A DNA stretch of 64,000 bases from an uncultured Gemmatimonadales bacterium (GCA_963809895.1 CAWELD010000003.1:3360001-3424000), one strand, 5' to 3'. Positions 21,739 through 64,000 are shown, numbered from the stretch's first letter. The notes: generated by a model not told the origin, from the letters alone. Made by a program: numbers and translations.

Positions 21739-22611
21739 ATGAGCCTCTTCCGACGAAGCGGGCCGGGTGTGCAGGTCACGGTGTCCGCGCTGAGCGACGT
21801 GGGGCAGGTGCGAGATCACAACGAGGATCGTTATCTGATCGCGGACCTCACCAGCCGCGAGATCTCCGACGGAGAGGGCCAGCACCGCTACACCCTGGGT
21901 CCCATGGGATCCATCCTGTTGGTGGCCGACGGCATGGGCGGCGCCGCCGCCGGTGAACTGGCCAGCCAGATGGCCAGCGACCTCATCTACGAGCAGCTCG
22001 CCACCGAGTGGTCCTCCGAGTCCTATCCCACCCCGGAGCGCTTCGCGGCCCGCGTGCGCGAGGCCGTGGAGCGCGCGAACAGCCGCATCCACGCCGAATC
22101 CGAGACCCAGCCCCATCTCCAGGGCATGGGCACGACCGCCACCCTGGTGGGCATCCTGGGTCCGCGCCTGCTGGTGAGTCAGGTGGGGGATTCCCGGGCC
22201 TACCTGGTGCGGGAGGGAGAAGCCGTCCAGATCACCCGGGATCAATCGTTCGTGCAGCACCTGCTGGATACGGGACGAGTCTCGGAGGAGGAAGCCTACA
22301 AGATGGCTCCCCAGAACGTGATCCTGCAGGCGCTGGGGCCCGCGCCCACCGTCGAGGTCGTGCAGAGCTGGGAGACGATTCTACAGGGGGATACGGTGCT
22401 GCTGTGCTCAGACGGCCTGTCTGGACTCGTGGGCATCGACGACATCGCGCGCATCGTGAACGACTCGAGCCGCCTGCACCAGGCCTGTCAGGGACTGGTG
22501 GACCTGGCCAACGCGAACGGGGGCCCCGACAACATCACCGTGATTCTGGCCAGCTTCGACGGCGACGGGCTCATGTCGCCCGACGAGGTGGAGCCGCAAG
22601 CGCCCTTCTAG
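21739..22611 (+). CDS. PP2C-type Ser/Thr phosphatase (Stp1/PppA-like), flanking the T6SS
   Basis: R..NED, VADGMGG, GMGTT, VGDSRAY, LCSDGL and GGPDNIT motifs. Confidence 0.93.
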   Translation: MSLFRRSGPGVQVTVSALSDVGQVRDHNEDRYLIADLTSREISDGEGQHRYTLGPMGSILLVADGMGGAAAGELASQMASDLIYEQLATEWSSESYPTPERFAARVREAVERANSRIHAESETQPHLQGMGTTATLVGILGPRLLVSQVGDSRAYLVREGEAVQITRDQSFVQHLLDTGRVSEEEAYKMAPQNVILQALGPAPTVEVVQSWETILQGDTVLLCSDGLSGLVGIDDIARIVNDSSRLHQACQGLVDLANANGGPDNITVILASFDGDGLMSPDEVEPQAPF

Positions 22612-22639
22612 CGTAGCGGCCATTCGCAGCGCGGAGGTC

Positions 22640-23878
22640 TCAGCGTCGCAGGAAAGCCTGTTGCCGGAAGCCCGGCGCCCGGGTCTCGTAGAGGGGCCGC
22701 GCGGGGTCCGACAGAGCGACTTCCAGCGCCGCCGCGTTACGCTGCCGCTGCCGGCCTTCCCGTAGCGCCGTCATGAAGACCTCGGGCGAGTGGGGCTCAC
22801 CGCGCAGGTAGCGGGTGCCCGGCGAAAAGCCGGATCCGTTCCGACCCCACCACTCGCGGAGCAGCTCGGGGTCGGGCCAGGGCAGGTCTTCGTCCACGTC
22901 CAGGGCAACGTCTTCGTCGGCCGGGTCCTCGGTCGGCCCCGCCTCGAAACCCTCCGGCGCATCGGCCTCCAGATCCTCGTAGGCCAGGTCGAGACCCGTG
23001 AGCATGCTGAAGGCCTCGCCAGCCGGCCGGGCCAGCTCCTCGACCGCCATCATGTCGAGGAGCCACGGCACCAGCGCCGGGTCGCCCAGGGCGGTGGCCA
23101 CCTGCACGGCCAGGCGCGCGTGGGGCTCGCTCTCGGCCAGGCTCGCCCACCAGGCGTGGGCACGCTCCAGGGGCATCCTGCGCGCGGCCAGGTCCGTGAC
23201 CTGCACCGCGCGGGCGCCCTCGCCGCCGGCGAGCTCGGCCAGCGCATGAATGGCCTCGACGTCGCCGAGAAGCGCGCCGGACCAGGCGGCCCACATGCGA
23301 ACGTCGCTCTCCTCGGCCGCATAATGGGCCTGGCAATGCGACAACAGGTCGCGCCGGCCCAGCTCGCCCGCCGCCTTCAGCGCTCGGGACTTCGGGGCGC
23401 CCTCCTCGGCCACGATCGCCCGCTGCAGGGCGTCGCCCGGATCGTGCCGGTGCACGGCGGCTCCGCCGATACCGATGCGCCGGAGCATGGGATCCCCGGA
23501 ATCCAGGAGCTCCATGGCCCAGGGGATGGCCTGCTCCGGCGCCAGCCAACCCAGCGCCGAGATGGCTCCCCGGGCCAGCTCCGTGCTCTCCGACGCGACG
23601 GTGAGCGCCTCCTCGAGCCGCTCCCGGCTGCCGGCCTCGAGGGCGAGCAGCGTCGCCATGAAGACCTCGCCCGCCTCCTTCCACCCGAGCTCTTCGCGCA
23701 CGATCTCCCACCCCGGATCGCCGCCGATGCGGAGCCCGTCGACGTGGGCCTCGACCCGCCCGTCCAGGCGCGCCAGGTCTTTCAGATCGTAGTGCGGCGC
23801 CCACACGGCCAGATCGCGGAGGAGCCAGTTGAAGGCCGCCTCCTCGGCGTGCTGGGAGAGGACGAGGGGGATGGTCAT
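22640..23878 (-). CDS. TIGR02270 family HEAT-repeat protein
   Basis: QHAEEAAF.W…R.EAH.DGL, GEAFS..TG.DL, LPWP…WW and TRYL.G motifs. Its position at the end of a DUF2169/DUF4150 cassette is typical. Confidence 0.85.
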   Translation of the reverse strand: MTIPLVLSQHAEEAAFNWLLRDLAVWAPHYDLKDLARLDGRVEAHVDGLRIGGDPGWEIVREELGWKEAGEVFMATLLALEAGSRERLEEALTVASESTELARGAISALGWLAPEQAIPWAMELLDSGDPMLRRIGIGGAAVHRHDPGDALQRAIVAEEGAPKSRALKAAGELGRRDLLSHCQAHYAAEESDVRMWAAWSGALLGDVEAIHALAELAGGEGARAVQVTDLAARRMPLERAHAWWASLAESEPHARLAVQVATALGDPALVPWLLDMMAVEELARPAGEAFSMLTGLDLAYEDLEADAPEGFEAGPTEDPADEDVALDVDEDLPWPDPELLREWWGRNGSGFSPGTRYLRGEPHSPEVFMTALREGRQRQRNAAALEVALSDPARPLYETRAPGFRQQAFLRR

Positions 23879-23892
23879 GGGCGTGGGAGAGC

Positions 23893-24798
23893 TCAGTCGA
23901 TGCGGGACCAGACAGTGCCATCGAACGCCACGAGATCCTTGGCACCGATCGACCAGAGCACTTCGTCCGTGACGGATAGACCATAGCACGTGCCGATGGC
24001 GACATCGCCCGTCTCGACGCGCTCGAGCTCCCCATCACTCAGCCGGAACAACTCGCTCATCGAGGTAAAGTAGAGCGCACCGTCGAACCACCGCACGCCC
24101 CAGAGATCCAGCTCGAGGCCTCCAGTATCGATCTGCTCCCACTGTTCGCCGCGACCGCGCACGAGTGTGCCAGCCTGACCACACGCATAGACACGTCCAT
24201 CGCCGGCACAGCAGACATCGGTAAGGATCAGGTTCGTCGGACTTCCGGCACGATGCCACTCCCGCCCGTCGAACGAATGGATCTCGCCCTTCCAGCCGAC
24301 GCAGTAGAGTTCGTCGATCCCGAAACCGTCGACACCCTCGAACCCGACTGCGCCTTCCTCCTCGGTCGCGCCGAGGTCCGGAGCCAGATCCCTCCATTCG
24401 TTCCGCGCCTCACGACGATAGATCTGACGGCCCATCCCCACGGCATGCATGAGCCCGCCGATCACCCGGCCACCACGGAGGGAGCCTCGGGCCCGGGGGC
24501 CCGTCCACTCGTCGCCGATGGCCTCTTCGTGTTGCTCCCCGCTGCCTGCGACGACCACCTCCCCGTACTCGCCTACGACGATCGCCTGTTCCAAAGGCCT
24601 CCGTAATACCTCCACCGCGGCCGTGTACCATGGCCACGTTCCGATCTGGCCAAATTCGCCGTGGTCCCACTCGGTGATGACCGAATGGGGGATCCGCTCC
24701 TCCGCCATGCTGTCCACCGACAGCGAGACGTACCCGACGTCCGGGTTTCGCACTGCTCCCTTCACGAAGGAGCCGACCTCCGTCAGTTGGCCGGGCAT
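23893..24798 (-). CDS. Putative immunity protein (beta-propeller-like)
   Basis: Directly downstream of the toxin, with a GAGGAGG SD, short beta repeats (FDG..W) and lower GC. Function is inferred from position. Confidence 0.6.
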   Translation of the reverse strand: MPGQLTEVGSFVKGAVRNPDVGYVSLSVDSMAEERIPHSVITEWDHGEFGQIGTWPWYTAAVEVLRRPLEQAIVVGEYGEVVVAGSGEQHEEAIGDEWTGPRARGSLRGGRVIGGLMHAVGMGRQIYRREARNEWRDLAPDLGATEEEGAVGFEGVDGFGIDELYCVGWKGEIHSFDGREWHRAGSPTNLILTDVCCAGDGRVYACGQAGTLVRGRGEQWEQIDTGGLELDLWGVRWFDGALYFTSMSELFRLSDGELERVETGDVAIGTCYGLSVTDEVLWSIGAKDLVAFDGTVWSRID

Positions 24799-24808: not shown

Positions 24809-26077
24809 TCAGCATAGTCCCGCCTTCCTCATCCGATTGAAGAGCTCCCTGGAGGCTCTCTCCTGGCAGTTCTGTTTGGCGAATTCGACCTCGTGAAGAT
24901 CGGTCTTTCCGGCCTCGACGGCCTTGATCTTCGTCTTGTCGTCTACGCCGCCCTGGTTGTGATAGGCATCCAACTGGCTCTCGATGCAGTCAGGGTCACA
25001 CCCGGCCAGGGGGAAGACCTCTTTCATCGCTTGTTTCGCGTTTTCCTTGGCCTGCTTGTAGGTCACGGTCTTGTGTGTGCCTGTGCTTCCATCCGCGAAG
25101 TGCAGCAGACCTTCTTCGGCATTCTGGTTGTTGTAGCTCTGCAGGGTGTGCATGAACCCATGGGTACCGACGTTCTGTGTCGGCCCCTCCGCGCAAACGC
25201 ACGGGGCGCTGTCTTCCTCGTATCTCACTTCGTCGTCCTCCACCAACGCCTCGATGGCGATGGATTCGACCTTCCTCTTCTTCCCGTCCGACCCTTTGCG
25301 CGTCACGGGCTTGCCTCGACCGACATTGAAGAACGCGCTGGCTTCGACGAGATGGTGTGGAGTCTGGCCCGGACAGCAACCGTTCGGCTTGTAGGTCTGA
25401 AGACTGCATCGTCGAACGCTGATGCACTGATTGGCCTCAGCGCGATCCGCGGCTTCCAGGGCGTCCCGACGGTTCTTGGCCACCCCGCCGGGCGTATCGA
25501 TCTCCATGTCGTACTCTCGGCCCGGCTTCTCCATGAGACCGGCGTCCTCGCAGACGTCCTTGTCCCCATGCGGCTTGTATTCCTTGCACGCGTTGTACTC
25601 GCGCTTCATGTCCTTCACGCACGGGTCGTCGAGGCTCACGGCCATCTGGTCCGTATACGGCCAAACCGCCGTATTCCCCGGCACCGACGCGTGATTGTGC
25701 GTCGTCAGATCCAGGTGCCGAACCACGTTCTCGCCCTCGACCTTCACGTCCATGGACCAGGCGTTGAAGTAGACCTTGCCGCGGTTCACGCTGGTGACGA
25801 CGCCCTTCTTGGTGGCCGAGCCTGCCTCGTCTCCGGTGCTCTTCTTGAAGTAGGACTTGTTCTTGAGCATGACCTCCTTGTCGGAGATCTTGACCTTCTT
25901 GCTGCCCGACGTGGTGTCGCTCGCCATTCCCGTGTTCGGATAGGGAATAGGCACACCGGGCGGCGTCGTGGGATTCTCCGGTGGCGTCATGCAGACGTCG
26001 GGAAAGCTCGCGATGGACTTCCCGTCGCCCGCCTTGCAGGAGATCTCCCTCCCGTTGGCGAAGACGTTGTTCGCCAT
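24809..26077 (-). CDS. PAAR-like (DUF4150, PIPY motif) spike tip fused to a GHH2/HNH-type nuclease toxin
   Basis: N-term FPDVC.TPP…PIPYPN…STGDEAG…SMDVK.EG.NV.R..D.TTHNH. C-term CCPGQTPHHLV…APCVCAEG…THGFMH…CDPDCI..QLDAYH. Confidence 0.85.
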   Translation of the reverse strand: MANNVFANGREISCKAGDGKSIASFPDVCMTPPENPTTPPGVPIPYPNTGMASDTTSGSKKVKISDKEVMLKNKSYFKKSTGDEAGSATKKGVVTSVNRGKVYFNAWSMDVKVEGENVVRHLDLTTHNHASVPGNTAVWPYTDQMAVSLDDPCVKDMKREYNACKEYKPHGDKDVCEDAGLMEKPGREYDMEIDTPGGVAKNRRDALEAADRAEANQCISVRRCSLQTYKPNGCCPGQTPHHLVEASAFFNVGRGKPVTRKGSDGKKRKVESIAIEALVEDDEVRYEEDSAPCVCAEGPTQNVGTHGFMHTLQSYNNQNAEEGLLHFADGSTGTHKTVTYKQAKENAKQAMKEVFPLAGCDPDCIESQLDAYHNQGGVDDKTKIKAVEAGKTDLHEVEFAKQNCQERASRELFNRMRKAGLC

Positions 26078-27096
26078 CAGGCGGCCTCCGTCGACGCGTC
26101 CAGGAGAAACGCTCCCCGCTCGGCACCGTCGCCGCTGACGTGGGCCAGCACGCGCCGGCCGGGAGCCCAGTCCTTGGCCATGGCCGACTGAATCACGGAC
26201 ACCATGATCGGCACCGCCGCGGCCCCGGTCTCACCCACGCAATCGGCGGGATGCCAGAGGTCATACTCCTCCTTGCGGGTCCGGAGCACCCGGGTGAGCG
26301 CCAGCGCAGCCTCCTTGAAGCCGAACTGCTCGCCGCTCAGGTCCGTGATGCGGAAGTCGGTGTGCCCGAGCTTCCAGCCGGCATCGTCCAGCGCGGCGCG
26401 GAAAGCCTGCACGAGGCCATCGGCTCGGTTGGGCTCGCCCGATCCGCGGGGCGCGGGCTCCATGCCGTAGCCGACGCCGATGCAGCGGACCGTACCGCCG
26501 GACCCGACGGGGCCCACGAGCACCGCGGCCGCGGCCTCGCCGGGAATGAAGCCGTCGGAGTTCTCGGCGGTGAGCAGGCGGTGCTGCCGGTGCCAGCCGT
26601 CCAGCGAGCGAGCCACCAGGAGCGAATCGGCGCCGGCCACGAGGCAGCGCGGCACGCCCTCGGCCAGCACGCGCCGCGAATAGTCCAGGGCCTGCACACC
26701 TCCGATACGACCGTTGGAGAACACCCGTGACCAGGGGTGGAAACGCACCTGCAAGCGCTCCTCCACCGCCCGGATCAGGCTGTCGTCCAACCCCGCGAGC
26801 CTGCCGGGTCGGTCCTCTTCAGGCAAACTCAGGAGCAGCGGCACATCGCCGGGCCGGGCTCCTTCAAGCCCTTCGATGCACTCGCCCACCGCCGAGGTCA
26901 CCATGTGGAGCAGCTTTTCACGGCCCCGCCACGGTTCTTCGAGCGGCACTTCGCATCCCAGGAGCCACTGGCCGTCGAACATGAAGCGGGTCTCCTCGAA
27001 GGCCGAGATGCCGGCGCGGATCGCGGCGCACGCGGCGGGCGCACTCAGCCCGACGCCGGTGACCATGCCGGTCCGGAGGATCTCCACGGCATTCAC
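26077..27096 (-). CDS. Thiolase/3-oxoacyl-ACP-synthase-like protein (PRK06147 type); alternative in-frame GTG start at 27231
   Basis: GMVTGVGL.A.A.CAAIRAG, GFIPGEAAAA, DL.GE…KE and HPA.C.GE.GAA motifs. The KAS catalytic Cys position reads NGRIGG. Confidence 0.85.
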   Translation of the reverse strand: MNAVEILRTGMVTGVGLSAPAACAAIRAGISAFEETRFMFDGQWLLGCEVPLEEPWRGREKLLHMVTSAVGECIEGLEGARPGDVPLLLSLPEEDRPGRLAGLDDSLIRAVEERLQVRFHPWSRVFSNGRIGGVQALDYSRRVLAEGVPRCLVAGADSLLVARSLDGWHRQHRLLTAENSDGFIPGEAAAAVLVGPVGSGGTVRCIGVGYGMEPAPRGSGEPNRADGLVQAFRAALDDAGWKLGHTDFRITDLSGEQFGFKEAALALTRVLRTRKEEYDLWHPADCVGETGAAAVPIMVSVIQSAMAKDWAPGRRVLAHVSGDGAERGAFLLDASTEAA

Positions 27097-27127
27097 CGCG
27101 AATCCCCGCGACCTGACACCCATCCGA

Positions 27128-27203
27128 CGTTTCAGCTGAAACGCGGGAGCGGCGCGCGGCCCATCCGCGGTCTGATACCGCCCTGACGTTTCAGCTGAAA
27201 CGT
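27128..27203. repeat. Two identical perfect 16-bp palindromes CGTTTCAGCTGAAACG, 59 bp apart (parS-like)
   Basis: Copies at 27128-27143 and 27187-27202. The second extends to the 18-bp palindrome ACGTTTCAGCTGAAACGT. Confidence 0.9.
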
Positions 27204-27227
27204 GCCGGCACGGGTGGAAGGCGGCCC

Positions 27228-28329
27228 TCACTCTTCCTCCTCCGCACGCGCAGCCACCAGCGCGCCGAGGCCGGCGTAGTAGGTCTTTCCCAGCGACCGC
27301 GCCCGGTACCAGCCCCGGGGCATGCGGCCCACCACGCATTGATTGAGCTCGAAGATGTTCTCGCGGAGGGGGCGCGACGCGCGCCACAGCACCATGAAGC
27401 GCCGCTGATCGGGCTCGATGATGACCGTGTCCATCACCGCCTGCTTCTCCTCGCGCTCGAACTCCCGGTCGGTGAACTCCACGGGCACCTGCAAACGGGG
27501 TAGCGGAAACACGGTGCGCCCTTCGGGAGTCAGCCCCGTGAGCTCGACCCACTCTCCGCCCCGGGGATGCTCCATCTGCTGATCCGCCGGCGCGCTCTGG
27601 AAGTAGAGGGGATCGAAATCCTCGGGCAGGAAGGGAAAGACGTTGTCGATCCAGTCCTGGTCGTAGGTGCCCTCCGAGGGGATAGCGCTCCTTGAACTGG
27701 CGCCCCACGACCCCGAACGACATGGGCCGGAAGCTGCCGGTGCGGTCGCTCACGGGCTGGCCCATCTCCTGGGTGTTGGGAAGCGGGCGCCCGATGATGG
27801 CCGGTCCGGCGAGAGGATAGAAGCCCACCCCCACCGGATTCTCCATGAAGGCCTCCACCCGCTCCGGATCCTCGGGATCGGCGTCCACCCCGCCCCAGGC
27901 CCGGTCGTAGGTGATGGGCATGGTGGTGAAGGGCTGATGCGACCCGGGCGTGGGGCCCAGCGCGCCGTCCTCCCAGATCCGGTCGCCCACCACGTCGAAG
28001 AACTTCTCGATGGTGCCCACGCGGAGCCCCACGGTCACCTGGTAGGCGGGCACGCCGTCCGGCGCGTGGGCACTGCCGTTGACCAGCACGTCGCAGCGAG
28101 GCTTCACAGGCGCGAAGTCGGACTCGTAGGTCACCGCACTGAGCCCCGGCTCGCCGGTGAACTCGTCGGCCATCACCAGCTCCACCTGCTCCTCGGCCAG
28201 CCTGGGCTCCTCCCCCTCGGGCGGGAACGCGAAGGTCCCTTTCACCACCACCACCACGCGCTCCCGGCCGTCGGGATCGAGGCCGAGCGTGTAGCCGGCC
28301 TCCATGCCGGTGGCGTTGAGAAGCTCCAT
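27228..28329 (-). CDS. DUF2169 family T6SS adaptor/chaperone, with a +1 frameshift at about 27671
   Basis: VVVKGTF, ESDFAP.KP..DV, V.GDR.W and NPVG.G motifs. Deleting one G in 'ctc gga ggg cac' restores GTYDQDW…PFLPEDFDPLYFQSAPADQQ and joins ORF 27228..27575. Confidence 0.85.
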
Positions 28330-28369: not shown

Positions 28370-28870
28370 TCAGTTGATCTGGACGGATCCGCCCTTGATG
28401 CGGTTCACGCCCGACGACCGGCTGAGCAGGTAGCGGCCACGGATGAGGATCTTGCCGGCGCGGGTGAGGGTGAGGCTGGCCTTCCCGCAGCGGAGCACGA
28501 TCTCGCGGTCGGCGGTGAGGACCAGACGCTCGCCGTCCACCTGCGCCTGCACCTCCCCGGCCTCCGCCTGCTCCGGCTCCACGACGGCATGTGTGTCCGC
28601 ATCCTCCTCGACATCAACGCCCACACCCGCGGGATGCTGGATGAAGCCCAGCACGATGGGGCGCTCCGGATCACCGCCCTCGAAGGCCAGCGCGACCTGG
28701 CGCCCCACGTCCTCCTCCGCGCTGGCCACGGTGGCCAGGGCGGACAGGGGCCCACCGGTGGGGTTCCCCGCATAGTCCACCAGGCACTCCGTGCGCTCCC
28801 CCGAGCGCACCAGCCGCCCGATCACCACGCCCTCCAGCCGGGTGGACGTACTCCGTTCCGTGGTCGCCAT
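28370..28870 (-). CDS. DUF6484-type VgrG-cassette protein
   Basis: FEGGDPERP.VLG (gp5 OB-like) and C-terminal CGKAS.TLTRAGKI.IRG.Y..SRSSG.NRIKGGSVQIN. Confidence 0.8.
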   Translation of the reverse strand: MATTERSTSTRLEGVVIGRLVRSGERTECLVDYAGNPTGGPLSALATVASAEEDVGRQVALAFEGGDPERPIVLGFIQHPAGVGVDVEEDADTHAVVEPEQAEAGEVQAQVDGERLVLTADREIVLRCGKASLTLTRAGKILIRGRYLLSRSSGVNRIKGGSVQIN

Positions 28871-28880: not shown

Positions 28881-30992
28881 TCAGTTCTGCAGGATCTTCT
28901 TGCCCTTCATGGTGATGTTCTTCGACGCCTTCACGTCGATCTTGCCCGAGCCGTCCACCGACAGGTCCTTCCCCTTGATGGAGATGGTCCCGTCCTTCTT
29001 CATGACGATGCTGGCTTTGCCGGTCTTGATGATGATCTCGTCACCGGCCTCGATGGTGAGCTTCTTGCCCACCGTGAGGGAGTCGTCGTCTCCCACCGAG
29101 GTGGAGCGGTTGGCGCCCACGTCGACCGACTGGTCGCTGCCCACGGACACCGACTCCTCGTTGCCCACCCTGGTGCTCTGATTGATCCCCACCGTGACGT
29201 TGCGCTCGCCACCGACCGTGACTTCCTGAGCGGCTCCCACGGTGACGGACTCGTTGATCCCCACCATGCGCGTACGGTTCTGGGCCACGGTGATCGACTC
29301 GCTCTGACCCACCGTCTCGGTGCGGTTGGAGCCGATGTCGATGGTCTCGTTGTTGCCCACCGACTCGGTGCGATCGTTGCCGATGGTGATGGTCTCGTTG
29401 TTGCCGACGTCTTCCGTACGATCGTTGCCGATGGAGATGGTCTCGTCGTGGCCCACCGACTCGTTGCGGTCGTTCTCCACCACCACCGTCTTGTTCTTTT
29501 CCGCATGGATGTAGAGCTCCTCGCTCCCCTTCTTGTCCTCCATGCGGATCTCGTTGAAGTTGTCCGCCCCCCCACCCAGCGAGCTCCTGGACTTCACCCC
29601 GCTCTGCGTACGGTTGGCCGGCAGGCCGTAGGGCACGGTCTGTTCGGCGTTGTAGACCCTGCCGGTGATGATGGGGCGGTCCGGGTCGCCCTCGAGAAAC
29701 TCGACGATGACCTCCTGGCCCATGCGGGGGATGTGGATCCCACCCCAGCTCTTGCCGGCCCAGGGGTACGAGACCCGCACCCAGCAGGAGCTGTTCTGGT
29801 CCTTGCCGCCGATCCGATCCCAGTAGAACTGGACCTTCACACGGCCATATTCGTCGGTGAAGATCTCCTCGCCCGACTTTCCCACCACCAGTGCCGTCTG
29901 CGAGCCGTGGATGCGCGGCTTGCGGGCACGGTGCGGCGGCCTGAACGGCGTGCTGAAGGGGATGGCCACGAAGTCGTTGCGATACTCCACCGTGGCCGAC
30001 TCCCAGGTACGGTAGTCGCCACCGTCGGCGTGATGCGTCACGTGCAGGAGCAGGTAATCCGTGTTCGCATCGGGCCGGTAGTGCTCCTCCAGCCCGAACT
30101 TGTAGCCACTGGTGAAGCCCCGGCAGTTCGCGCTGCCCCGCACCACCTGCCGTCCGCACTCACCCTCCTCGAGGATGAGCTGCGCGTAGCGCTCCCCTTC
30201 ACCCAGATCCAGGTAACGTCCGGGGTAGTCGTAGACCTCCTCGCCGTTCTCGCCGCTCGCCCCCGTTTCCAGGTTCAGCGACGGGCGCGTGAAGTCGTAA
30301 TCACGCAGGGTGACCTGACCGATGTGCACCGCCGATTCCACCTCCAGCGTGCGCACCACCTCTTCGTCCTGCCACGGGCCCTCGTCGGTGGCCATGCGCG
30401 CCGTCTCCTGGCCCGGGCACGGCTGGCAGGTACTGTTGGCGTCGGCGATGACCAGCAGGTGCTTGTCGTCGGAATGCTCGAAGTAGAAGAAGATCCCCTC
30501 TTCTTCGAAGAGCCGCGTGACGAAGTTGAAGTGGGATTCGCGGTACTGGACGCAGTACTCCCGGGGTGCGTAGCTCCCGGAGCAGCGCACTTCGTAGTCC
30601 GTGTATCCCAGCCCGTCGAAGACCTCCTGCGCGATCTCCAGCACGGTCTTCTGCTGGAAGATCTTGCAGTCCTGAGACAGCTTCAGGAACCAGAGCCAGG
30701 GCACGACCTCGGCCTGGTAGACCGTGAGGTCCTCGCGCTGCCCTCGTTGGACGAATCGTCGCACCAGGCCGTGGATCTTCCGCTCCTGGTCGAGATGCGT
30801 GATGGTCACCACCACGGGCTCGCGCAGAAGGCTGGCCGGATCGATGGAATCGTCTTCGGAGAGCAGGTCGAGGGTGAAGGCGAAGGGAATGGACATGCCC
30901 TCCTCACCCCCCATGCCCTGCAACAGCAGGACATCGGTATCGAGCGGCGTGTCGACCCGGATCGCCCGTCCTTCCTGCGAGAATCTACCCAT
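28881..30992 (-). CDS. vgrG: T6SS spike protein VgrG with Gp5 C-terminal beta-helix
   Basis: REYCVQYRES, EEEGIFFYF, DEYGRVKVQF.W, PR.GQEV.V.FLEGDPDRP and F(N)E.R.EDKKG.E motifs. Confidence 0.97.
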   Translation of the reverse strand: MGRFSQEGRAIRVDTPLDTDVLLLQGMGGEEGMSIPFAFTLDLLSEDDSIDPASLLREPVVVTITHLDQERKIHGLVRRFVQRGQREDLTVYQAEVVPWLWFLKLSQDCKIFQQKTVLEIAQEVFDGLGYTDYEVRCSGSYAPREYCVQYRESHFNFVTRLFEEEGIFFYFEHSDDKHLLVIADANSTCQPCPGQETARMATDEGPWQDEEVVRTLEVESAVHIGQVTLRDYDFTRPSLNLETGASGENGEEVYDYPGRYLDLGEGERYAQLILEEGECGRQVVRGSANCRGFTSGYKFGLEEHYRPDANTDYLLLHVTHHADGGDYRTWESATVEYRNDFVAIPFSTPFRPPHRARKPRIHGSQTALVVGKSGEEIFTDEYGRVKVQFYWDRIGGKDQNSSCWVRVSYPWAGKSWGGIHIPRMGQEVIVEFLEGDPDRPIITGRVYNAEQTVPYGLPANRTQSGVKSRSSLGGGADNFNEIRMEDKKGSEELYIHAEKNKTVVVENDRNESVGHDETISIGNDRTEDVGNNETITIGNDRTESVGNNETIDIGSNRTETVGQSESITVAQNRTRMVGINESVTVGAAQEVTVGGERNVTVGINQSTRVGNEESVSVGSDQSVDVGANRSTSVGDDDSLTVGKKLTIEAGDEIIIKTGKASIVMKKDGTISIKGKDLSVDGSGKIDVKASKNITMKGKKILQN
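29060..29490 (-). repeat. Gp5_C 8-residue tandem repeats in VgrG (about 17-18 units, xxxxVGxx)
   Basis: RNESVGHD ETISIGND RTEDVGNN ETITIGND RTESVGNN … RSTSVGDD DSLTVGKK. Confidence 0.85.
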
Positions 30993-51900: not shown

Positions 51901-52393
51901 GGACGAGGTCGACGCCACCGGCGCCAACCTCACCTCCGCCTACGACCGTTTCCGCACCCGGGCGCTGGAGGTCTCCAGGGCCTTCTACCAGCGCGGCGGC
52001 GACATGGGCTTCGACTTCACCTTCCAGGTCACCAACTTCCAGGGCGTGGACCGGGTGGAGCTGCGCGTGGACGGCCAGGTGGGCGTCTTCACCCCGTCGC
52101 TGTCCAACAGCGAGCGCTTCGTGTGGGATCCCGCGTCGGCGGAGCAGGCCATTCTGGAGGTGCGATCGGGGCAGAATCCCCCGGTGTCACTGGACTTCGC
52201 CGGACCGTGGGCGGTGTTCCGCCTCTTCCATCAGGGCGAGTGGCAGGGCGGCAGCAGCGGCGAGTTCTCCGTCACCTGGGCGCTCCCCGACGGCGGCAGC
52301 GTGACGGGCCTGCTGGCGCCCCGGGGCGGCGTTCCCATCCTGCGTCGGGGCTACCTCGACGCCCTCGATTGCCCCCGGGTCGTGGCGCGATGA
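48980..52393 (+). CDS. tssM: T6SS membrane subunit TssM (IcmF)
   Basis: N-terminal TMs, LP..L..G..GS.KTT, LPVYV.FTK.D….F.EF, YEFP.E, P.LRGFYFT, a third TM and C-terminal GPW..FRL. Confidence 0.92.
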   Translation: MPRPRMPRPRSLLVGAPVLMVVAVLGFMAGSGLDNRWLRWGVRAAIWMLGAMIVYFILQLMRRAGGPRKKAAPDPVDGILSEARKRLKAAGVKGRGAMDRLPMVLVMGPRGSAKTTLVLQSDLDAEHLAGNLRSDGLVAPTEALNLWYDDGRVVVEAAGALAVEPTRWSTLVSKLRPRRWLPALLGRPQAPRVAVVCFSVEDLMELSAGDGAGSAARNLRDRLTELSEAIGIRLPVYVVFTKADRIPHFEEFVENLTDPEVQEILGTTLRALGESTAGTWAEREKDRLAGSFEEMFQSLAERRLEVLDRAGSTEGNGAAYEFPREFRKLAPTAIDFLVELCRPSQLRVSPFLRGFYFTGVRPVVVEEGAPRYEAPPALEEAAPAGATQVFNLQAAQARAAQASSGSREGRQRRVPQWVFLQRILRKVVLQDRVAMGITTSGIGLSALRRIYWAAGIGLFLVLGLSLMVSYNRERGLQDEVATAMAALPRSVPGGRGVASMDDIRRLDALRAVTDKLSRYENGHRPLRNLLFMYTGGDLYPTARERYFQVFRPLLFNRAFDGIQSDLRSPPEPPTFADYDRTYRALKAYIEMTDEPGHAEAGFFGDVLTDYWAGSEDLGDDRQELARAQFAFYGSELPYGNPYTLNADPSLVGPTRQFLVRNTNEESFYRSLVGQWSSRLPAARLATDRPETAPFVASEAEVPGAFTRMAWDSVHTSLARSDQALSLDRWVVGEGFFASVLQQGFDTDSLAPRLRSRYETDYRDAWVSFLSDTQLQTRSLGGARNWLADLGGNRSAVFQILEYVDSQTAVNAPAVRNTFAALDALVPPDSVRGTKLYSDEAGSAYLVQLQTLGQAVGRLADSPGDPTAGDQVRTAAATGLQFVSQTSLGFPGEPAEARTASGAVTALLSRPFRWAEAQAGQGPQMAANGIAQEFCQRQEGRVLGRYPFEPNRPEAAVEDVAAFLAPDGGELRAFMDEVDATGANLTSAYDRFRTRALEVSRAFYQRGGDMGFDFTFQVTNFQGVDRVELRVDGQVGVFTPSLSNSERFVWDPASAEQAILEVRSGQNPPVSLDFAGPWAVFRLFHQGEWQGGSSGEFSVTWALPDGGSVTGLLAPRGGVPILRRGYLDALDCPRVVAR

Positions 52394-52464: not shown

Positions 52465-52989
52465 ATGAGACGCTTGTCCCCACTCCGGATCCTGCCCTGT
52501 CTGGTCGCCGTGCTCCCGCTGGCGGCGTGCGGTGGCGGGAATGCGCCTCCGCCTCCGACGCCAGGCCGCCGGGTCGAAGCCGTGCCCGACGCCGATCGCC
52601 TCTACCGCGGTGACCGCACCGCCATGGACTCGGTCATGGTGGTCATCAACGATCCCCAGACGCTACAGCTCTGGTGGCAGCGCGCCACGGCCGAGGCCCC
52701 GGAGCCGCGCCCCGGCGTACCCACCGTGGACTTCGATCAGCACACGGTGCTCATGGTGTCGGCGGGTCGCATGAACAACGGCGACCGCATCCGCGTGGAC
52801 AGCCTGGGCTTCGAGGTGCAGGCGGAACCCGGGGGAGGGCGCAGCGAGGTGTGGTTCGCCATCGTGCGCACCACCCGCGACTGCAATCCCCTGCCCGGCG
52901 TTCGCTACCCCCTGGAGTTCGTACGCATCTCCAAGGTGCAGGAAGTGCGCTTCGATCCGCGGCTCACCGCGTGCCCGGGAGGCGCTTGA
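52465..52989 (+). CDS. Small lipoprotein directly after tssM (PrcB-C-like pattern)
   Basis: GGAG SD, lipobox LAAC, and 'P.VDF….V..V.AG….G..I.V.S'. Confidence 0.65.
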   Translation: MRRLSPLRILPCLVAVLPLAACGGGNAPPPPTPGRRVEAVPDADRLYRGDRTAMDSVMVVINDPQTLQLWWQRATAEAPEPRPGVPTVDFDQHTVLMVSAGRMNNGDRIRVDSLGFEVQAEPGGGRSEVWFAIVRTTRDCNPLPGVRYPLEFVRISKVQEVRFDPRLTACPGGA

Positions 52990-55006: not shown

Positions 55007-56360
55007 TGCTGGCCTCCGGGAAACGTCACCCTGATGATGCCGGTGGTGGGCGGTGGTGGCTCCTCACCCCCACCGCCACCACCGCCGCCGAGGACCGCGG
55101 CGGCCACGCCCACCACGGCGGCGCCGGCGCCGATCCACTTCCATGGCGGCCCGCCACCTCCGCTCGGGGCGCCGGCAGCCTCCGGAGTCGTCTGCGCCAC
55201 CTGCTCCGCCAACGCCCGCTCCAGAAGCCGGGCCGCCAGGCTCATGGGGGCGACCTGGTCGGGTCCAACCACCACCCCGAGGAGGGCGCCGCTGCGGTCC
55301 ACGAGCGGCGCGCCCTGAGCGTCCTGGGGCAGCGCCGAGGCCAACGTCACCAGGCCCTGCGGGCTGGACGGCCAGTCACCGAGCCGCGCGCGGCCGCTGG
55401 CCGCCGGCTGGCAGCCCGGATGGAAGACGGACCACACGTACGCGCCGCTCGACGGCCGCGCTCCGCTGGAGAGCGTCGGTTGCCCCGAAGCGCCCAAACG
55501 CAGCACGGCGAGGTCCAGATCCTGATCGCTGGCCGCCACCGAGATGTCGCTGTAGACCCCGCCCGGCGTCGTGACCGTGAGTCCCGAGCTCTGGGGAAGG
55601 CCGCTCCTGGAGGTCAGGACCACGCCGTCCGAGCGTGCCAGGAAGCCGGTGGTGCAGAACTGCTGACCACCCTGGTCGTAGCGGATGCTCACCAGCGTCG
55701 AGGCCACCCGGCTCTCCACGTCGGCGGCGAGCAGGGGCGCCAGGGCGAAGCCCACCTCCGTGGTGACACCAGGCAGGATCTCGCGGGTGATCTGCGCCGG
55801 CTCGTAGCCGTCGGCGGAGGCGGACAGACGGTACGTGCCCGGCGGGAGCGTGAGCTCGCCCCCGGCCGATACCGCGCCCTGGCCCTCGACGTTCACGGTC
55901 ACCGGCACTCCGGCGCCGCTCACGGCCAGCGTGCCCTGGGCGTCGGCGTCGAAGGTGCCGGGCCAGCGCCAGTCGGTGGTGGTCACGTCCTCGTCGCCGG
56001 CCCCCTCACCCTGCACCGCCGCCAGCGCCCGGTCGTATGCGTCCACCACGCGGGGCGGGAGCGTGCGGTCCACGGGCCACTGGCGGCCCTCGCGGGCGGA
56101 CCAGCGGAGCCACACGCCGGCCAGGTCCTGGTCGCCGAGGCCCAGGAGGGTGAGCGCCATCTCGTGCACGCTCACCGCCCACAGACTGTCCCGAGGCGCG
56201 GCGTCGGGGTCGGCGGCGCGCATGAGGAGATCCAGAGCGGCCGAATCACTCAACTGGCTGCGGGCCTGCTCCACGAGCCGGGCCCGATCCTGGGCTACGG
56301 CCGGACGAGCGCCGAAGGCCACGACCGCGAGCGTCACCATCGAGACCGTCGCGAGCTTCT

Positions 56361-56364
<4 letters not shown>
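55003..56364 (-). CDS. Secreted PEGA-like plus degenerate trypsin-fold protein with a C-terminal TM/Gly-rich tail
   Basis: Signal peptide, 'LPPGTY.L…A.GYE', and a trypsin-like segment GF…DG.VLT(SRS)…DLDLAVL…(AQ)GAPLVD.SG..LGV lacking the catalytic His and Ser. Confidence 0.7.
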
Positions 56365-59411
<3,047 letters not shown>

Positions 59412-59639: not shown

Positions 59640-61430
59640 ATGACGCCCACCGCCGGAGACCCCGACGGCCCCAGGGATCCCCGCGATCGCATCGGTACGA
59701 TCCTCGCCGGGCGCTACGAACTGGTGGAGTATCTAGGGGGAGGGGCGCAGGGCGAGGTGTACGCGGGCATCCACCGCAAGATCGGCCGCCGGGACGCCAT
59801 CAAGATCCTCAAGAACCGGTTCCGGCACGACTCCGACGCCGTGGCGCGCTTCACGCGGGGCGCCGCCAACGCCTCCAGGATCTCGCACCCCAACGTGTGC
59901 ACGGTCTACGACTTCGGCGAGACCGACGAGGGCCTGCCCTTCCTGGCCTCCGAGTTCGTTTCGGGCGAAACCCTGGGCGATATCCTGGAGCGCGACGGGG
60001 TCCTGACGCCGGAGCGGGTCGTGGAGATCGCCCGCCAGGTGGCCTCGGCGCTGGAAGCGGCACACCAGCTTGGCATCGTGCATCGCGACCTGAAGCCGGA
60101 CAACATCATGCTCACCACCGACGCGGCCGGACGCGAGCGCGTGAAGGTGGTGGATTTCGACATCGCCAAGGGATCCAAGGAGGGCCTGGAGGGCGGGATC
60201 ACCCGTGGCGGCTGGGTGGTGGGCACCCCCCAGTACATGAGCCCGGAGCAGCTCAGCGAGGACGCACTCGACGGCCGAAGCGACATCTACTCGCTGGCCG
60301 TGGTCCTCTTCAAAGCGCTCACCGGGCGGCTGCCCACCCGCAGCTCCTCCACGCAGGACCTCATGGTCGAGCGGCTGACCCAGGACGCGTTGCTCCTCTC
60401 GGAGGCGGTGCCCGATGCGGGGTTCCCGCCGGCGCTCGAGCAGGCTCTGGCGGCCGGGCTGGCCCGCAAGCGCGAGGACCGTCCGCCCCGCGCCATGGAC
60501 TTCGCGCACCGGCTCGCGGCGTCGCTCACGGCCGGGGGGGCGTCGGCGGGGCTGCCCGCTACGGAGTTGCAGCCGGTACGGACCGAGGTGCCACCCACCA
60601 CGGCCGGCCCGTCGCCCGGAGCCGGCTCCCGAGACGCGCCGCCCCCTGGGGTCGGCTCCGGGAATACCCGCCGTTGGGTGCAGGTGGCCATCGGCGGCGT
60701 GCTGGTGGTGGTGGTCCTCTTCGGCGGATGGTCCCTGGTGTCCGGCGGGAGAGGCGACGCGCCCCCCGTCGACGACGTCGAAACCCCGCCCCGGGCCGCG
60801 ACTCCCGACCGGCTGCAGACGACCCCCGCCGAACTCCGTTTTTCCGCCACGGTCGGCCAGGCACCGGACCCAGCCAGCGTCGCGGTTCGCGCCGCGTCGG
60901 GCGGCTCCGCTCCGGTGGAGGTCCGTGCCGAGTACGACGGCGATGCAGGCGGCTGGCTCGATGCCGCCCTGGATGGCGCGCAGACGCCCACCACGCTGCG
61001 CGTCACGCCCCGAGGCGACGGACTCGCCGCCGGCACCTACAGCGGCCGGGTCGTGCTCCGCCTCGGAGCGGACGGCCCCGAGCAGGCGATCCCCGTGCGC
61101 ATGGAGCTGGCCGAAGCTCCCGGACCGTCGCCCGGCCCGCAGCCGAGCGCCGCCGACCTCGCCGCCCGAGCCCGCCGCATGCTGGTGTTGGTGAGCAGCG
61201 CCGGGAGCGACCGGGAGCTCCGCGCGGTGCGGGACTCCACGGCCCCGCTCTGGGAGAACCGCTCCCTGCCCGACCGCACCCGGGCCCTGGCCGCCTACGT
61301 ACACGGCCTGGCCCTGTCACGCCTGGGCGAGGGGGGAGCCGAGGCGTGCCGCCTGTGGGCCGGGCGAGCCCTGGACCTGGCGCCCGACGACGAGAGCTAT
61401 CAGCGGCAGCTCGAGGGATGCGGCTCCTGA
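59640..61430 (+). CDS. Atypical Ser/Thr kinase (DFD motif), TM, BACON-like Ig domain, helical/TPR-like tail
   Basis: GGGAQGEVY, AIK, HRDLKPDN, DFDIAK and GTPQYMSPE; TM; 'WL…….TP.TL.V…..L.AGTY.G.V'. Confidence 0.88.
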   Translation: MTPTAGDPDGPRDPRDRIGTILAGRYELVEYLGGGAQGEVYAGIHRKIGRRDAIKILKNRFRHDSDAVARFTRGAANASRISHPNVCTVYDFGETDEGLPFLASEFVSGETLGDILERDGVLTPERVVEIARQVASALEAAHQLGIVHRDLKPDNIMLTTDAAGRERVKVVDFDIAKGSKEGLEGGITRGGWVVGTPQYMSPEQLSEDALDGRSDIYSLAVVLFKALTGRLPTRSSSTQDLMVERLTQDALLLSEAVPDAGFPPALEQALAAGLARKREDRPPRAMDFAHRLAASLTAGGASAGLPATELQPVRTEVPPTTAGPSPGAGSRDAPPPGVGSGNTRRWVQVAIGGVLVVVVLFGGWSLVSGGRGDAPPVDDVETPPRAATPDRLQTTPAELRFSATVGQAPDPASVAVRAASGGSAPVEVRAEYDGDAGGWLDAALDGAQTPTTLRVTPRGDGLAAGTYSGRVVLRLGADGPEQAIPVRMELAEAPGPSPGPQPSAADLAARARRMLVLVSSAGSDRELRAVRDSTAPLWENRSLPDRTRALAAYVHGLALSRLGEGGAEACRLWAGRALDLAPDDESYQRQLEGCGS

Positions 61431-61453: not shown

Positions 61454-62863
61454 GTGTCCCGGATACGCGTGGAGCGTGGAGCCCGGGCCGGGTGGTCCGT
61501 CGAGCTCGCCGACGACGAGGTGCTCGTCGGCCGAGCCCCCGGCGCCGGCGTGCGCATGGACCCCGAAGCCGACCGGGGCGTGTCGGCGCGGCACGCCCTC
61601 CTGGTGCGATCCCCCGAAGGCTGGACCGTCCGGGACCTCGGAAGTCGCAACGGCACGCGCCTCAACGGCGAGCCGCTCACCTCGGTCGCGCTGCTGAGGC
61701 CTGGGGATCGCATCGAGCTGGGAGACGGCGGACCTCGCCTCGTCTACGAAGAAGGGCGGCCGGCACGTTCGGCGCCTTCGCACGCAGACCCGCCGCGCAC
61801 GGTCGCCGCTCCGCGGCCGAAACAGGGCGGGGGCCGGGTGGTGGGACTCACCGTGGCCGTGGCGGCCGTGGGCGCCCTCGCCCTCGCCGCGGTGTTCACC
61901 CGACGCTCCGCTCCCGGCGCCTCGACGAGCGAGGCGGAGCGGGCGAGCCCCGCCCTGCCCGTCCCGGACACGACTGCGGCAGACCCGGACTCCACCGCCC
62001 GCGAGCTCGAGGCTCTGCGTTCACGGGTGGCGGGGCTGGCCGAGGAGCTGCGACGCTCCCGCGACCAGGCCGATTCGCTTCAGGCGGCGCTGGACCAGGC
62101 CGAGGAACGGGGCGCCGACGACGGCGAGGTCCAGGAGCTCCGGCGCAGGCTCCAGTCGGCCAGCGCCGCCCTGCTGCGCCAACAGGCGGCCGCCACCCTC
62201 GACTTCGCCGATCTGGAGGCGAGCACCCGCGCCGCCACCGCCCAGGTCTACGTGGAGTTTCCCGGCGGGCGCGTGATCGCCGCCACCGCCTTCGCCGTGG
62301 ACTCCGCCGGTTGGCTCGTCACCAATCGGCACGTGGTGCGGGACTCCGCGGGCGCCCGTCCCGAGCGCATCGGCGTCCAGCTCGCCGGCCGCTCCGGCGT
62401 GCTTCCGGCCCAGGTGCTGGCGGTGGCCAACCTCGACGACGTGGCGTTGCTGCAGGTGCGGGCGCCCGGTGCGCTGCCGGTGATCCGGGGCTTCAACGAG
62501 CGGCTCGACACGATCCGCTCAGGGGCGGCGGTGGCGTCGTTCGGCTTTCCGCTGGGCGGCGACGCGGCGGCGCTGGAGGGCCGTGGCGGCACCATCGCCG
62601 AGCCGTTGGTGACCGCCGGCATCCTCACCGACCACGGCGGCGAGCTGCTCGAGGTGCAGGGCTACGGCGCCCGGGGCGCCAGCGGCAGCCCTCTGGTGGA
62701 CGGCCGCGGTCACGTGCTGGGGATGATCGTCGGTGGCCGCATCGAAGGCGAGACCCAGACGCTCTTCGCCGTGCGGGCGGACCGCATCCGCGAGTTCCTG
62801 GACCGGCGGCGGGTGGGTCCGGGGGGGCGACCGCGTGAGCCGGGGCGGCGCCCCCGGACCTAG
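61454..62863 (+). CDS. FHA domain, TM, coiled coil, trypsin-like serine protease
   Basis: FHA motifs VGR, VSARHA and DLGSRNGT.LNG; TM; heptad region; protease TNRHVV, DDVALL and GASGSP (intact triad). Confidence 0.88.
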   Translation: MSRIRVERGARAGWSVELADDEVLVGRAPGAGVRMDPEADRGVSARHALLVRSPEGWTVRDLGSRNGTRLNGEPLTSVALLRPGDRIELGDGGPRLVYEEGRPARSAPSHADPPRTVAAPRPKQGGGRVVGLTVAVAAVGALALAAVFTRRSAPGASTSEAERASPALPVPDTTAADPDSTARELEALRSRVAGLAEELRRSRDQADSLQAALDQAEERGADDGEVQELRRRLQSASAALLRQQAAATLDFADLEASTRAATAQVYVEFPGGRVIAATAFAVDSAGWLVTNRHVVRDSAGARPERIGVQLAGRSGVLPAQVLAVANLDDVALLQVRAPGALPVIRGFNERLDTIRSGAAVASFGFPLGGDAAALEGRGGTIAEPLVTAGILTDHGGELLEVQGYGARGASGSPLVDGRGHVLGMIVGGRIEGETQTLFAVRADRIREFLDRRRVGPGGRPREPGRRPRT

Positions 62864-62897: not shown

Positions 62898-63629
62898 TCA
62901 GACGCCGGAGCGCTCCTTCTCCAGCGTCTGCCGGGGCTCCTCCCAGTCGGGGAACTTGTCCACGACCCGGTCGAGCTGCTCCATGCCCTCGTCGCGGAAT
63001 CCCTCGTCCAGGAGCTTGAGCGCCAGCGAGTACTCGGTGAACGCCTCGGGCGGCACCTGCTTCGACTGCTCCTCCCGCTCCTCCTTCACCTGCTGCGGCA
63101 GCGGCGGCAGGTCCACGGAGCGCGTGAGCTGATCGGCCAGGTCGACGATGAGCGTGAGGATCTCGGTCCTCGGTCCCTGCTCCTTGGCGCCGGTCTCCCA
63201 TTCCCCGGTCTCCACGTCGACGATGCGGGCGTCGATGCGCACCTGGCCGAAGATGTCGGCGAAACTGCCGAGCACCACGTAGTGGGCCTGGACCAGGCGA
63301 CCGACCTGCAGCGCGGTGGCGGGATCCACCAACCGGTCGTTCTCCTGCAGATTCAGCTCCTGGATCAGGTCCGCGATGCGTCCACGCTCGACGATGCGGA
63401 GCCCGGAGTTCTGGCCCAGTTCGGTGAGAAGCATCTGCTGGAGGCCGACACCCAGCGCGTCGAAGTTCTCGGCCTCGGCGCCGGGCCCGTGCGAACCGCC
63501 GTTGTCGAAACGCAAGACGGCGACTCCGGGCCGCGTATCGGCGGCGGCCGAATCCTGGGCGGCGAGGCCCGGCGCGGAAACGAAGGCTGCGGTGGCGACA
63601 GCGATGGCGAAACGGACCGGACTTGCCAT
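62898..63629 (-). CDS. Secreted CsgG/HfaB (TolB-N-like) domain protein with a C-terminal TPR-like helix pair
   Basis: Signal peptide and 'VAVL.F.N…GL..ML.TEL…..RIVER..I…..E..L…VDP.TA..VG.L..A.Y.V.GS…RIDARIVDVETGE'. Confidence 0.8.
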   Translation of the reverse strand: MASPVRFAIAVATAAFVSAPGLAAQDSAAADTRPGVAVLRFDNGGSHGPGAEAENFDALGVGLQQMLLTELGQNSGLRIVERGRIADLIQELNLQENDRLVDPATALQVGRLVQAHYVVLGSFADIFGQVRIDARIVDVETGEWETGAKEQGPRTEILTLIVDLADQLTRSVDLPPLPQQVKEEREEQSKQVPPEAFTEYSLALKLLDEGFRDEGMEQLDRVVDKFPDWEEPRQTLEKERSGV

Positions 63630-63660
63630 AAGATTCTCCAGAAGCCGGATACCCAAGCCA

Positions 63661-63680
63661 GGACATGCGCGGCCATGTCC
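63661..63680. promoter_or_regulatory. Inverted repeat GGACATG-N6-CATGTCC between divergent genes
   Basis: Perfect 7-bp arms in a 69-bp divergent spacer. Confidence 0.35.
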
Positions 63681-63698
63681 CTCTCTGGATGGTTAGTC

Positions 63699-64000
63699 AT
63701 GAACGGAACGCCGCGCCAGCCTCTACGACGTGGTCGGAACTGGTGCCTGCCCTGGATCGTGGCCGCGCTCGGCGCGTGCGCCACCGCCCCTCCGCAGGCG
63801 CCCGGACCGTCGGAGCTCCCCGCCCTCGAAGCCCGGTTGCGCGCCGACTCCACCGACGTAGCCACGCTGGTGGCGCTGGGCGCCGGTTATCAGGCGGCGA
63901 ACGATCCGGAGCGGGCTCGACCGCTGCTGGAGAAGGCGGTGGCCCTGGCTCCCGACGATCAGGCGGCTATCCTGTTTCTGGGGGCGACCTACGAGGACCT
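63699..64000 (+). CDS. 3'-truncated TPR lipoprotein
   Basis: Manual translation gives MNGTPRQ…WIVAALGAC-ATAPP (lipobox), then the TPR 'LVALGAGY…A.PLLEKAVALAPDD..A.LFLGATYE'. It runs off the window edge and is absent from the ORF track. Confidence 0.75.
   Translation, partial: MNGTPRQPLRRGRNWCLPWIVAALGACATAPPQAPGPSELPALEARLRADSTDVATLVALGAGYQAANDPERARPLLEKAVALAPDDQAAILFLGATYED

Follow-up and report, generated by a model that had tools for sequence, protein, structure and literature searches.

How does a type VI secretion system (T6SS) that has no TssJ assemble and cross the outer membrane? By one survey 27.5% of non-Acinetobacter genomes lack TssJ and both of the Acinetobacter substitutes (PMC10564176). 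The present study analyzes a T6SS locus of an uncultured Gemmatimonadales bacterium, which begins at position 21,739 of a stretch of 64,000 nucleotides (GCA_963809895.1, CAWELD010000003.1:3360001-3424000; the whole stretch is termed the window) and continues about 3.7 kb beyond the end of the window, to about 67674, where Lon follows. The source genome measures 5.3 Mb and is 95% complete; the window is part of its contig C3, and a genome-wide search found a single T6SS, a single vgrG and a single hcp. Genes were called by a codon model and 30 open reading frames (ORFs) were then scanned with Pfam and NCBIfam. The locus is real and conserved, a variant of T6SS-i with several undescribed parts, and its lineage supplies a defined parts list from two abundant environmental phyla. 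At odds of roughly one in two (a probability of about 0.5), these parts would form a phosphothreonine (pThr) switch in which a tssM-linked kinase writes, a PP2C phosphatase erases, Thr387 of TssM and the repeats of a Thr-rich membrane protein are the sites, and FHA-fused proteins read.

The tail and baseplate set is complete by Pfam and NCBIfam (tssA, B, C, hcp, E, F, G, H, vgrG, K), and the inner-membrane pair was found as TssL (PF09850) and TssM (PF14331/PF06761/PF06744), the latter scoring 334.7 bits against TIGR03348, under that profile's cut-off of 388. The scans bore out the gene assignments of the original prediction, an earlier reading of the window from its sequence, both for the core (tssA, B, C, hcp, E, F, G, H, two copies of K, L, M, vgrG, tagJ and a spike cassette) and for the accompanying PP2C, two Ser/Thr kinases, FHA-trypsin, trypsin-like, CsgG-like, TPR plus CsgG and Big_2 proteins. 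Its statement that TssJ is missing held as well: PF12790 had no match in 151 genomes, host included, or in 5 Acidobacteriota genomes, TIGR03352 had none in 5 well-assembled genomes, and the E. coli controls were positive. By either profile, then, tssJ is lacking from the canonical TssJLM set, and this is a contractile T6SS with a full gene set and no TssJ, an absence already known in T6SS and not new (PMC10564176). There were two FHA domains in the host genome, that of the FHA-protease of the window and an unlinked copy 2.8 Mb away; no soluble Fha/TagH occurs in the cluster, where the sole FHA is anchored by a transmembrane (TM) segment and fused to a protease, and neither a canonical tssJ nor a canonical fha was found nearby. 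TagF (PF09867) had no match in 5 genomes, and no positive control matched either.

The hallmark of the locus is the block tssK1 - antisense Thr-repeat gene - tssK2 - tssL - tssM, present in Gemmatimonadota and Acidobacteriota. A profile search found TssF in 56 of the 151 genomes, and the subtype was taken as the 42 of these with a TssL profile score of at least 281 bits, the remaining TssF genomes scoring at most 138. Those 14 appear to carry a different T6SS; gene order differs in one (G147) and TssM matches weakly in two (G017 and G121). Co-occurrence counts, entered by hand, are given below in the order subtype (42 genomes), other T6SS (14) and TssF-less (95), and they reflect linkage and not repeated co-evolution because the relatives are not independent; one unpublished genome (G144) is within the 42 and enters the counts for TssF, TssL, the N-domain, the outer-membrane protein (OMP) and the sheath fusion. 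Loci were compared among the best 80 of 495 TssL relatives in GTDB contigs, a set skewed to kin of the window because only the top relatives were kept, and the closest of these were metagenome-assembled genomes of Gemmatimonadota with 72–75% TssL identity. Of the 80 loci, 54 were informative, having at least 2.6 kb upstream of tssK2; the antisense repeat gene lay just upstream of tssK2 in 52 (35/35 Gemmatimonadota, 12/14 Acidobacteriota, 5/5 unassigned), with tssK1 upstream as well in 50. TssK1 (49 sequences, support 0.945) and TssK2 (72 sequences, support 0.929) are two clades, each spanning both phyla.

Core gene order as in the window recurred in 10 of 11 neighbourhoods compared. In a tree of 25 TssM sequences the 20 from the subtype, of both phyla, formed a clade of their own, apart from the 5 outgroups (support 1.0, stem 0.77), where the support is the unrooted value, a re-rooted 0.646 having been discarded, and the tree is small and assigns no subtype. 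Best matches of the window TssM were on Gemmatirosa and Granulicella plasmids (385 and 376 bits, with at most 171 for the others listed); both plasmids carry repeat gene, tssK2, tssL and tssM in that order, and the plasmid of Granulicella tundricola has the same layout with the antisense gene between two tssK. These patterns uphold the claim of a distinct T6SS lineage in a poorly studied phylum, with a single TssM clade and syntenic, co-inherited accessory genes. The T6SS was already known from these phyla in Solibacter (PMC2660368, PMC4239648), and a plasmid clade of Gemmatimonadetes and Acidobacteria has been placed, by TssB only, in a branch of subtype i4b (PMC9113992); the present locus shares its core genes, and its own placement follows that paper. 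The text on that clade does not mention a duplicated tssK, repeat protein, TssM motif, lipoprotein or sheath fusion (PMC9113992), and the terms Acidobacter-, Gemmat-, proline-rich and two TssK are absent from the available text of a 2026 review on accessory factors (PMC13584744). In the main texts of mostly open-access literature no published description of the repeat protein, the doubled tssK, the TssM motif or the sheath fusion was found.

The repeat protein, a likely scaffold, has an N-terminal domain (N-domain) of about 95 residues, a Pro-rich chain of up to 12 repeats and a C-terminal hydrophobic helix. The repeat consensus is P-G-E-[FY]-T-R-[MLI]-F, and the window protein holds four G/S-x-[FY]-T-x-x-hydrophobic repeats. 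When repeats were picked by their flanks, whatever the central residue, that residue was Thr in 178 of 180. Searching with the N-domain gave 78 proteins, partly overlapping the loci compared above, none with a functional name and one with a Pfam match; at least three repeats were present in 65 and a C-terminal hydrophobic stretch in 61, and the centre was Thr in 161/165 repeats. When the host's own 27,598 frames were scanned for the motif, the scaffold came out on top (4 in 407 codons), five others having 3 in about 1000. The N-domain was found in 41/42, 0/14 and 1/95 genomes. Its model (pLDDT 84.6) is predicted to have the fold of a kinase N-lobe with no catalytic lobe: all 50 of the 50 structural matches listed were protein kinase domains (Z 6.5–7.7), among them PknB 1mru_A (Z 7.5, root-mean-square deviation (rmsd) 3.9, 92 aligned), while a His occupies the position of the catalytic Lys, HRD, DFG and the C-lobe are missing, and Pro-rich repeats begin at about residue 95. 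Apart from designed repeat proteins, a sequence search of the N-domain against PDB returned nothing but weak matches to kinases (StkP, E 0.23–0.47). One genome with no TssF or TssM match (G084, 96% complete) also encodes a lone scaffold N-domain, close to a kinase and a PP2C (L125 9338-10399), perhaps as a relic.

The repeat motif has a counterpart in TssM. In a cytoplasmic loop that is otherwise variable, residues A386-T387-x-V389-F390 were invariant at the named positions in 11 sequences, and T-x-x-F/L was present in 62 of the 63 TssM loops that could be located among the 80 loci (Acidobacteriota 17/17). Some Acidobacteriota loops read GATRMF, the same core as the scaffold repeats, and that of Granulicella reads ATKIF, with the motif absent from all 5 outgroup TssMs (four proteobacterial and one from the other Gemmatimonadota T6SS). 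This sharing is the strongest hint of a common writer or reader for scaffold and TssM, and it is likely, judging from the sequences, that a membrane protein copying the Thr motif of TssM would form a phosphorylation switch unlike those described for T6SS. The shared motif, the pseudo-kinase N-lobe, the lipoprotein that follows tssM and the TssB-TssC fusion were not part of the original prediction.

Candidates for a reader and a writer lie beyond tssM. The FHA-protease (E at most 1e-30) occurred in 36/42, 0/14 and 3/95 genomes; FHA residues R27/S44/H47/N66 and the triad H293/D329/S412 were invariant in 7 sequences, and in one genome (G116) the protein holds the only FHA domain found. The conserved kinase at 59640 has the Lys, HRDLKPxN and a TM segment. 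In many Acidobacteriota loci a kinase or PP2C gene directly follows tssM, and in some FHA-TM-lytic transglycosylase or FHA-DUF4123 genes adjoin vgrG. Such FHA-SLT (joined via a hydrophobic segment) and FHA-DUF4123 genes were near the cluster in 2/5 Acidobacteriota genomes and in locus L089 (L140 5840-7399, L142 15071-16060, L089 2357-3352).

A described precedent is the Thr phosphorylation pathway PpkA/TagE - PppA/TagG - Fha/TagH of Pseudomonas H1, Serratia and Agrobacterium (PMC3953482, PMC13584744). FHA domains are specific for pThr, and in Agrobacterium pThr14 of TssL binds Fha (PMC3953482). As in that pathway, a membrane Ser/Thr kinase, a PP2C and an FHA reader stand beside tssLM, and as in Agrobacterium the predicted target is a Thr of a membrane-complex subunit, there Thr14 of TssL (PMC3953482). 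In contrast, no soluble TagH was found, a membrane-spanning fusion links the FHA to a trypsin protease, and phosphorylation is predicted on a TssM loop and on a dedicated scaffold with many repeats and a pseudo-kinase N-lobe. N-lobe to N-lobe contact, as in dimers, activates PknB-type kinases. The catalytically empty N-lobe of the scaffold would bind the kinase, possibly by such contact, and the kinase would place pThr on Thr387 of TssM and on the scaffold repeats, from which PP2C would remove it. By their multivalency the repeats could then raise the local concentration of FHA readers around the membrane complex or impose a threshold on them, and docking of FHA at pThr sites would switch assembly on or off. 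The reader in this Gemmatimonadota order would be the FHA-TM-trypsin protease, acting in the periplasm at the firing site, with FHA-TM-lytic transglycosylase or FHA-DUF4123 proteins possibly taking its place in some Acidobacteriota and the PrcB-like lipoprotein perhaps serving as periplasmic partner of TssM. The proposal builds on observed gene content and synteny, on co-inheritance and a shared motif, and on FHA and protease residues that are intact, and the N-lobe fold comes from a predicted model. Of the relay from a pThr scaffold to an FHA-gated protease that had been proposed earlier, a scaffold is likely, given the Thr repeats and the N-lobe model, and the catalytic and pThr-binding residues of the protease are conserved; gating by phosphorylation is what we infer. 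If true, a multivalent pThr scaffold with an orphan N-lobe and a membrane-spanning FHA-protease would extend the known logic of T6SS phospho-control, and with cultured carriers available in Granulicella tundricola and Gemmatirosa kalamazoonensis, attention narrows to one TssM Thr, one repeat motif and one kinase.

Several findings weigh against the phosphothreonine switch. Z-scores with kinases stayed under 8 and profile-profile comparison was weak (hhalign E 0.0097, probability 4%). Domain-level matches and no full-length FHA-protease orthologue were found in 5 Acidobacteriota genomes, of which 2 had an FHA gene near the T6SS, so that the FHA reader is not universal. The kinase at 59640 has an atypical alphaC/DFG pair, which could reflect a compensated active site or a pseudokinase, so the kinase could be inactive; in its 24 orthologues above 240 bits the pair was Gly+Asp in 17, Glu+Gly in 4 and unreadable in 3, with none mixed. 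Score thresholds were placed at gaps after inspection of the data, in relatives that are not independent. Finally, the fixed place of the repeat gene between two tssK would fit binding of TssK equally well.

That last point leads to the alternative that survives best, which is possible but somewhat doubtful: the T-x-hydrophobic-F motif may be a peptide on which TssK docks independently of phosphorylation, and the repeat protein may tether several TssK trimers of the baseplate to the inner membrane and thereby stabilize the TssJ-less complex, as TsmK does in Acinetobacter. The two old TssK clades across both phyla are consistent with it, as are the position of the motif's other site on the cytoplasmic face of TssM and the lack of the FHA-protease in the Acidobacteriota loci examined. 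The baseplate docks at that face of TssM, in TssM-TssK docking. In Acinetobacter, TsmK binds TssK, TssL and TssM, and the TsmK/TagX/TslA complex likewise has no TssJ, a short TssL and an additional inner-membrane protein whose cytoplasmic portion is large (PMC10564176). However, TsmK is a folded pseudo-ketoacyl synthase, whereas the protein here consists of Pro-rich repeats and a kinase N-lobe. Acinetobacter TssM also has a GS-linker extension (PMC10564176) that is missing in this lineage, where TssM ends 4–7 residues past a conserved Cys. Docking of TssK would also leave unexplained the kinase N-lobe of the scaffold, the near-exclusion of Ser at the Thr position, and the kinase and PP2C genes beside tssM in both phyla. 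The two explanations are compatible, since phosphorylation could gate docking.

The envelope model of the original prediction, in which Ig/BACON kinases sense envelope contact and CsgG-like, TPR, beta-barrel and immunoglobulin (Ig) proteins form an outer-membrane part replacing TssJ, is improbable. In its favor, most subtype loci of good assembly have CsgG, TPR-CsgG, OMP and Ig genes behind the FHA-protease, and the OMP (E at most 1e-8) is in 39/42 subtype genomes; however, it is also in 4/14 and 23/95 of the others, the trio of CsgG, TPR-CsgG and OMP stands in whole or part without T6SS genes in stretches L129-L133, and the OMP had no match within 10 kb of tssL in 19 Acidobacteriota loci or in a 42.7 kb Granulicella region. 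This distribution speaks against a trio dedicated to T6SS; the three genes make up an envelope module of their own, frequently located next to the T6SS. Sensing by Ig/BACON kinases found no support because conservation among orthologues of the 59640 kinase is limited to its kinase domain and a short, helical C-terminal part and does not extend to the Ig/BACON-like ectodomains; Pfam gave no BACON match in that kinase, and the trio of Ig-kinase, pseudoprotease and Ig-lipoprotein is lineage-specific, adjoining tssM in just three of the 80 loci, those closest to the window. As an observation apart, the CsgG, TPR-CsgG lipoprotein, OMP and Ig protein set (window 62898-64000, L001 2898-7674) is unnamed, occurs in many Gemmatimonadota and possibly serves surface display of lipoproteins. 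Least probable of all is that kinase, PP2C and FHA-protease are a general phospho-signalling operon riding along with a T6SS free of phospho-control, as their occurrence without T6SS genes in G058 and, in an Acidobacteriota genome, away from the T6SS contig as an FHA-TM-trypsin gene accompanied by two kinase-like genes and a PP2C (L145 4989-10605, G155:C39) might suggest, against FHA-protease co-occurrence of 36/42 versus 3/109, the tight gene order behind tssM and the conserved Thr motif within TssM.

A broader proposal built on the phosphothreonine switch is more tentative than the switch itself, short of even odds: an old two-phylum lineage would have its own control, in which a tail-anchored disordered scaffold, with an orphan N-lobe that recruits or activates the kinase and up to a dozen pThr copies of the TssM motif, organizes two TssKs and interchangeable FHA-fused tools (periplasmic protease, lytic transglycosylase, DUF4123 chaperone); a lipoprotein other than TssJ and a truncated TssB-TssC fusion would add two more undescribed structural components.

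The lipoprotein encoded after tssM reached at least 100 bits in 40/42, 0/14 and 1/95 genomes, weaker paralogues in 36 more genomes being excluded at a score gap. A direct Pfam scan gave no match; the best Atlas clusters for it (0.93–0.94) have PrcB_C (PF14343) in 50–80% of members, so that it may be viewed as a T6SS-linked subfamily of PrcB_C set off by that gap from genome-wide paralogues. Its model (pLDDT 89) had no Foldseek match at E at most 0.001, and the best VIA match had Z 2.3 (rmsd 5.2, 87 aligned); the lack of a clear fold match would not make the fold new or set it apart from TssJ. It matches no TssJ profile and is, in this lineage, the leading candidate for a periplasmic partner of TssM, though not universal. 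As a universal TssJ substitute it was rejected, since no profile match occurred in 19 Acidobacteriota loci, Granulicella, Gemmatirosa and several Gemmatimonadaceae loci; in the Acidobacteriota loci examined the lipoprotein never came next after tssM, a place often taken by a kinase or PP2C. A literature search found no paper uniting PrcB, lipoprotein and type VI secretion.

The TssB-TssC fusion supplements a normal tssB and tssC and is sometimes far from the cluster. It was full-length in 26 of the 42 subtype genomes (plus 1 partial) and in 0/109 others, and occurred also in two Acidobacteriota loci. It lacks VipB_2 and keeps an LLDxI helix resembling LLDEII, a ClpV-binding motif (PMC4239648), and it may act in the start, capping or recycling of the sheath.

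The spike cassette (DUF6484/DUF2169/PRK06147/PAAR-Tox-GHH2/TIGR02270 by Pfam and NCBIfam) follows the order vgrG - DUF6484 - DUF2169 - PRK06147 - DUF4150/PAAR of the class II Tvp cassette of P. aeruginosa, PA0095-PA0099 (PMC13373197). In contrast to that cassette, the DUF2169 gene is frame-split in this assembly, PF09937 positions 1-198 and 230-294 falling in different frames by a lesion or assembly error; the cassette varies among relatives and is ordinary. GC content was 62% over the effector and immunity pair (window 24001-26000) compared with about 69% around it, as expected for an exchanged toxin module. Features of the locus are listed in Table 1.

Table 1. Features of the T6SS locus, with positions counted from the first nucleotide of the window.
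Feature	Position	Strand	Basis and remarks
PP2C Ser/Thr phosphatase	21739..22611	+	PF13672, NF033484; between kinase and FHA-protease in most relatives
TIGR02270 HEAT-repeat protein, spike cassette	22640..23878	-	NCBIfam; start approximate
Putative immunity gene	23893..24798	-	By position after effector; no family match
PAAR-like (DUF4150) + Tox-GHH2 nuclease effector	24809..26077	-	PF13665, PF15635
PRK06147 thiolase-like spike accessory	26077..27231	-	NF004798; start approximate
DUF2169 (TvpA-like)	27228..28329	-	PF09937; two reading frames, split near 27575
DUF6484 (TvpC-like)	28370..28870	-	Pfam
VgrG	28881..30992	-	Pfam/NCBIfam; sole copy found in genome
TssH/ClpV	31036..33834	-	TIGR03345
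TssG	33844..34854	-	Pfam/NCBIfam
TssF	34851..36680	-	Pfam/NCBIfam
TssE	36715..37191	-	Pfam/NCBIfam
TssA, long form (ImpA_N + VasJ domain)	37178..39061	-	Pfam/NCBIfam
TagJ/ImpE	39070..39786	-	PF07024
Hcp	39807..40292	-	Pfam
TssC	40343..41839	-	Pfam/NCBIfam
TssB	41826..42338	-	Pfam/NCBIfam
TssB-TssC fusion without C-terminal VipB_2	42528..44036	-	PF05591 6-110 + PF05943 204-472; no PF18945
TssK1	44153..45556	+	Pfam/NCBIfam; own clade
Thr-repeat protein (kinase-N-lobe-like aa 1-90, Pro-rich linker, TM)	45609..46730	-	Alignments, predicted model
TssK2	46822..48204	+	Pfam/NCBIfam; own clade; start uncertain
TssL, short form without peptidoglycan-binding domain	48218..48940	+	Pfam/NCBIfam
TssM	48980..52393	+	Pfam/NCBIfam
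A-T-Q-V-F motif, TssM residues 386-390, variable cytoplasmic loop	50135..50149	+	Alignment
PrcB_C-like lipoprotein directly after tssM	52465..52989	+	Start uncertain: 52390 or 52465
Big_2/PPC Ig-domain lipoprotein	52964..55006	-	Lineage-specific position
Exported trypsin-like pseudoprotease	55003..56364	-	Catalytic His absent, also in three close orthologues
Zn-ribbon + Ser/Thr kinase + Big_2 repeats + TM	56361..59381	-	Lineage-specific position
T6SS-linked membrane Ser/Thr kinase, conserved	59640..61430	+	Pfam; alphaC Glu to Gly, DFG to DFD
FHA - TM - predicted coiled coil - trypsin protease	61454..62863	+	H293/D329/S412 conserved
CsgG-like exported protein	62898..63629	-	PF03783; start approximate
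TPR + CsgG-like lipoprotein	63699..65015 (window ends 64000)	+	Profile scan
Beta-barrel-like OMP, beyond window	65012-66175		Distant Phenol_MetA_deg link
Second Ig protein, beyond window	66172-67674		Then Lon

There was a second, differently ordered T6SS in the same bacterial order (L007, G147:C1:6310550-6331497, and 13 relatives), also negative for PF12790, with two small ORFs upstream of tssK in L007. In a sediment metatranscriptome, short near-identical pieces were present in 22/30 bins, the contigs being uninformative on expression, strand or level. About 40 kb past the window lies a gene for a protein of 1818 amino acids (G000 C3, offset about 103407-108863) in which kinase, AAA, GAF and adenylate/guanylate cyclase domains were recognized by eye.

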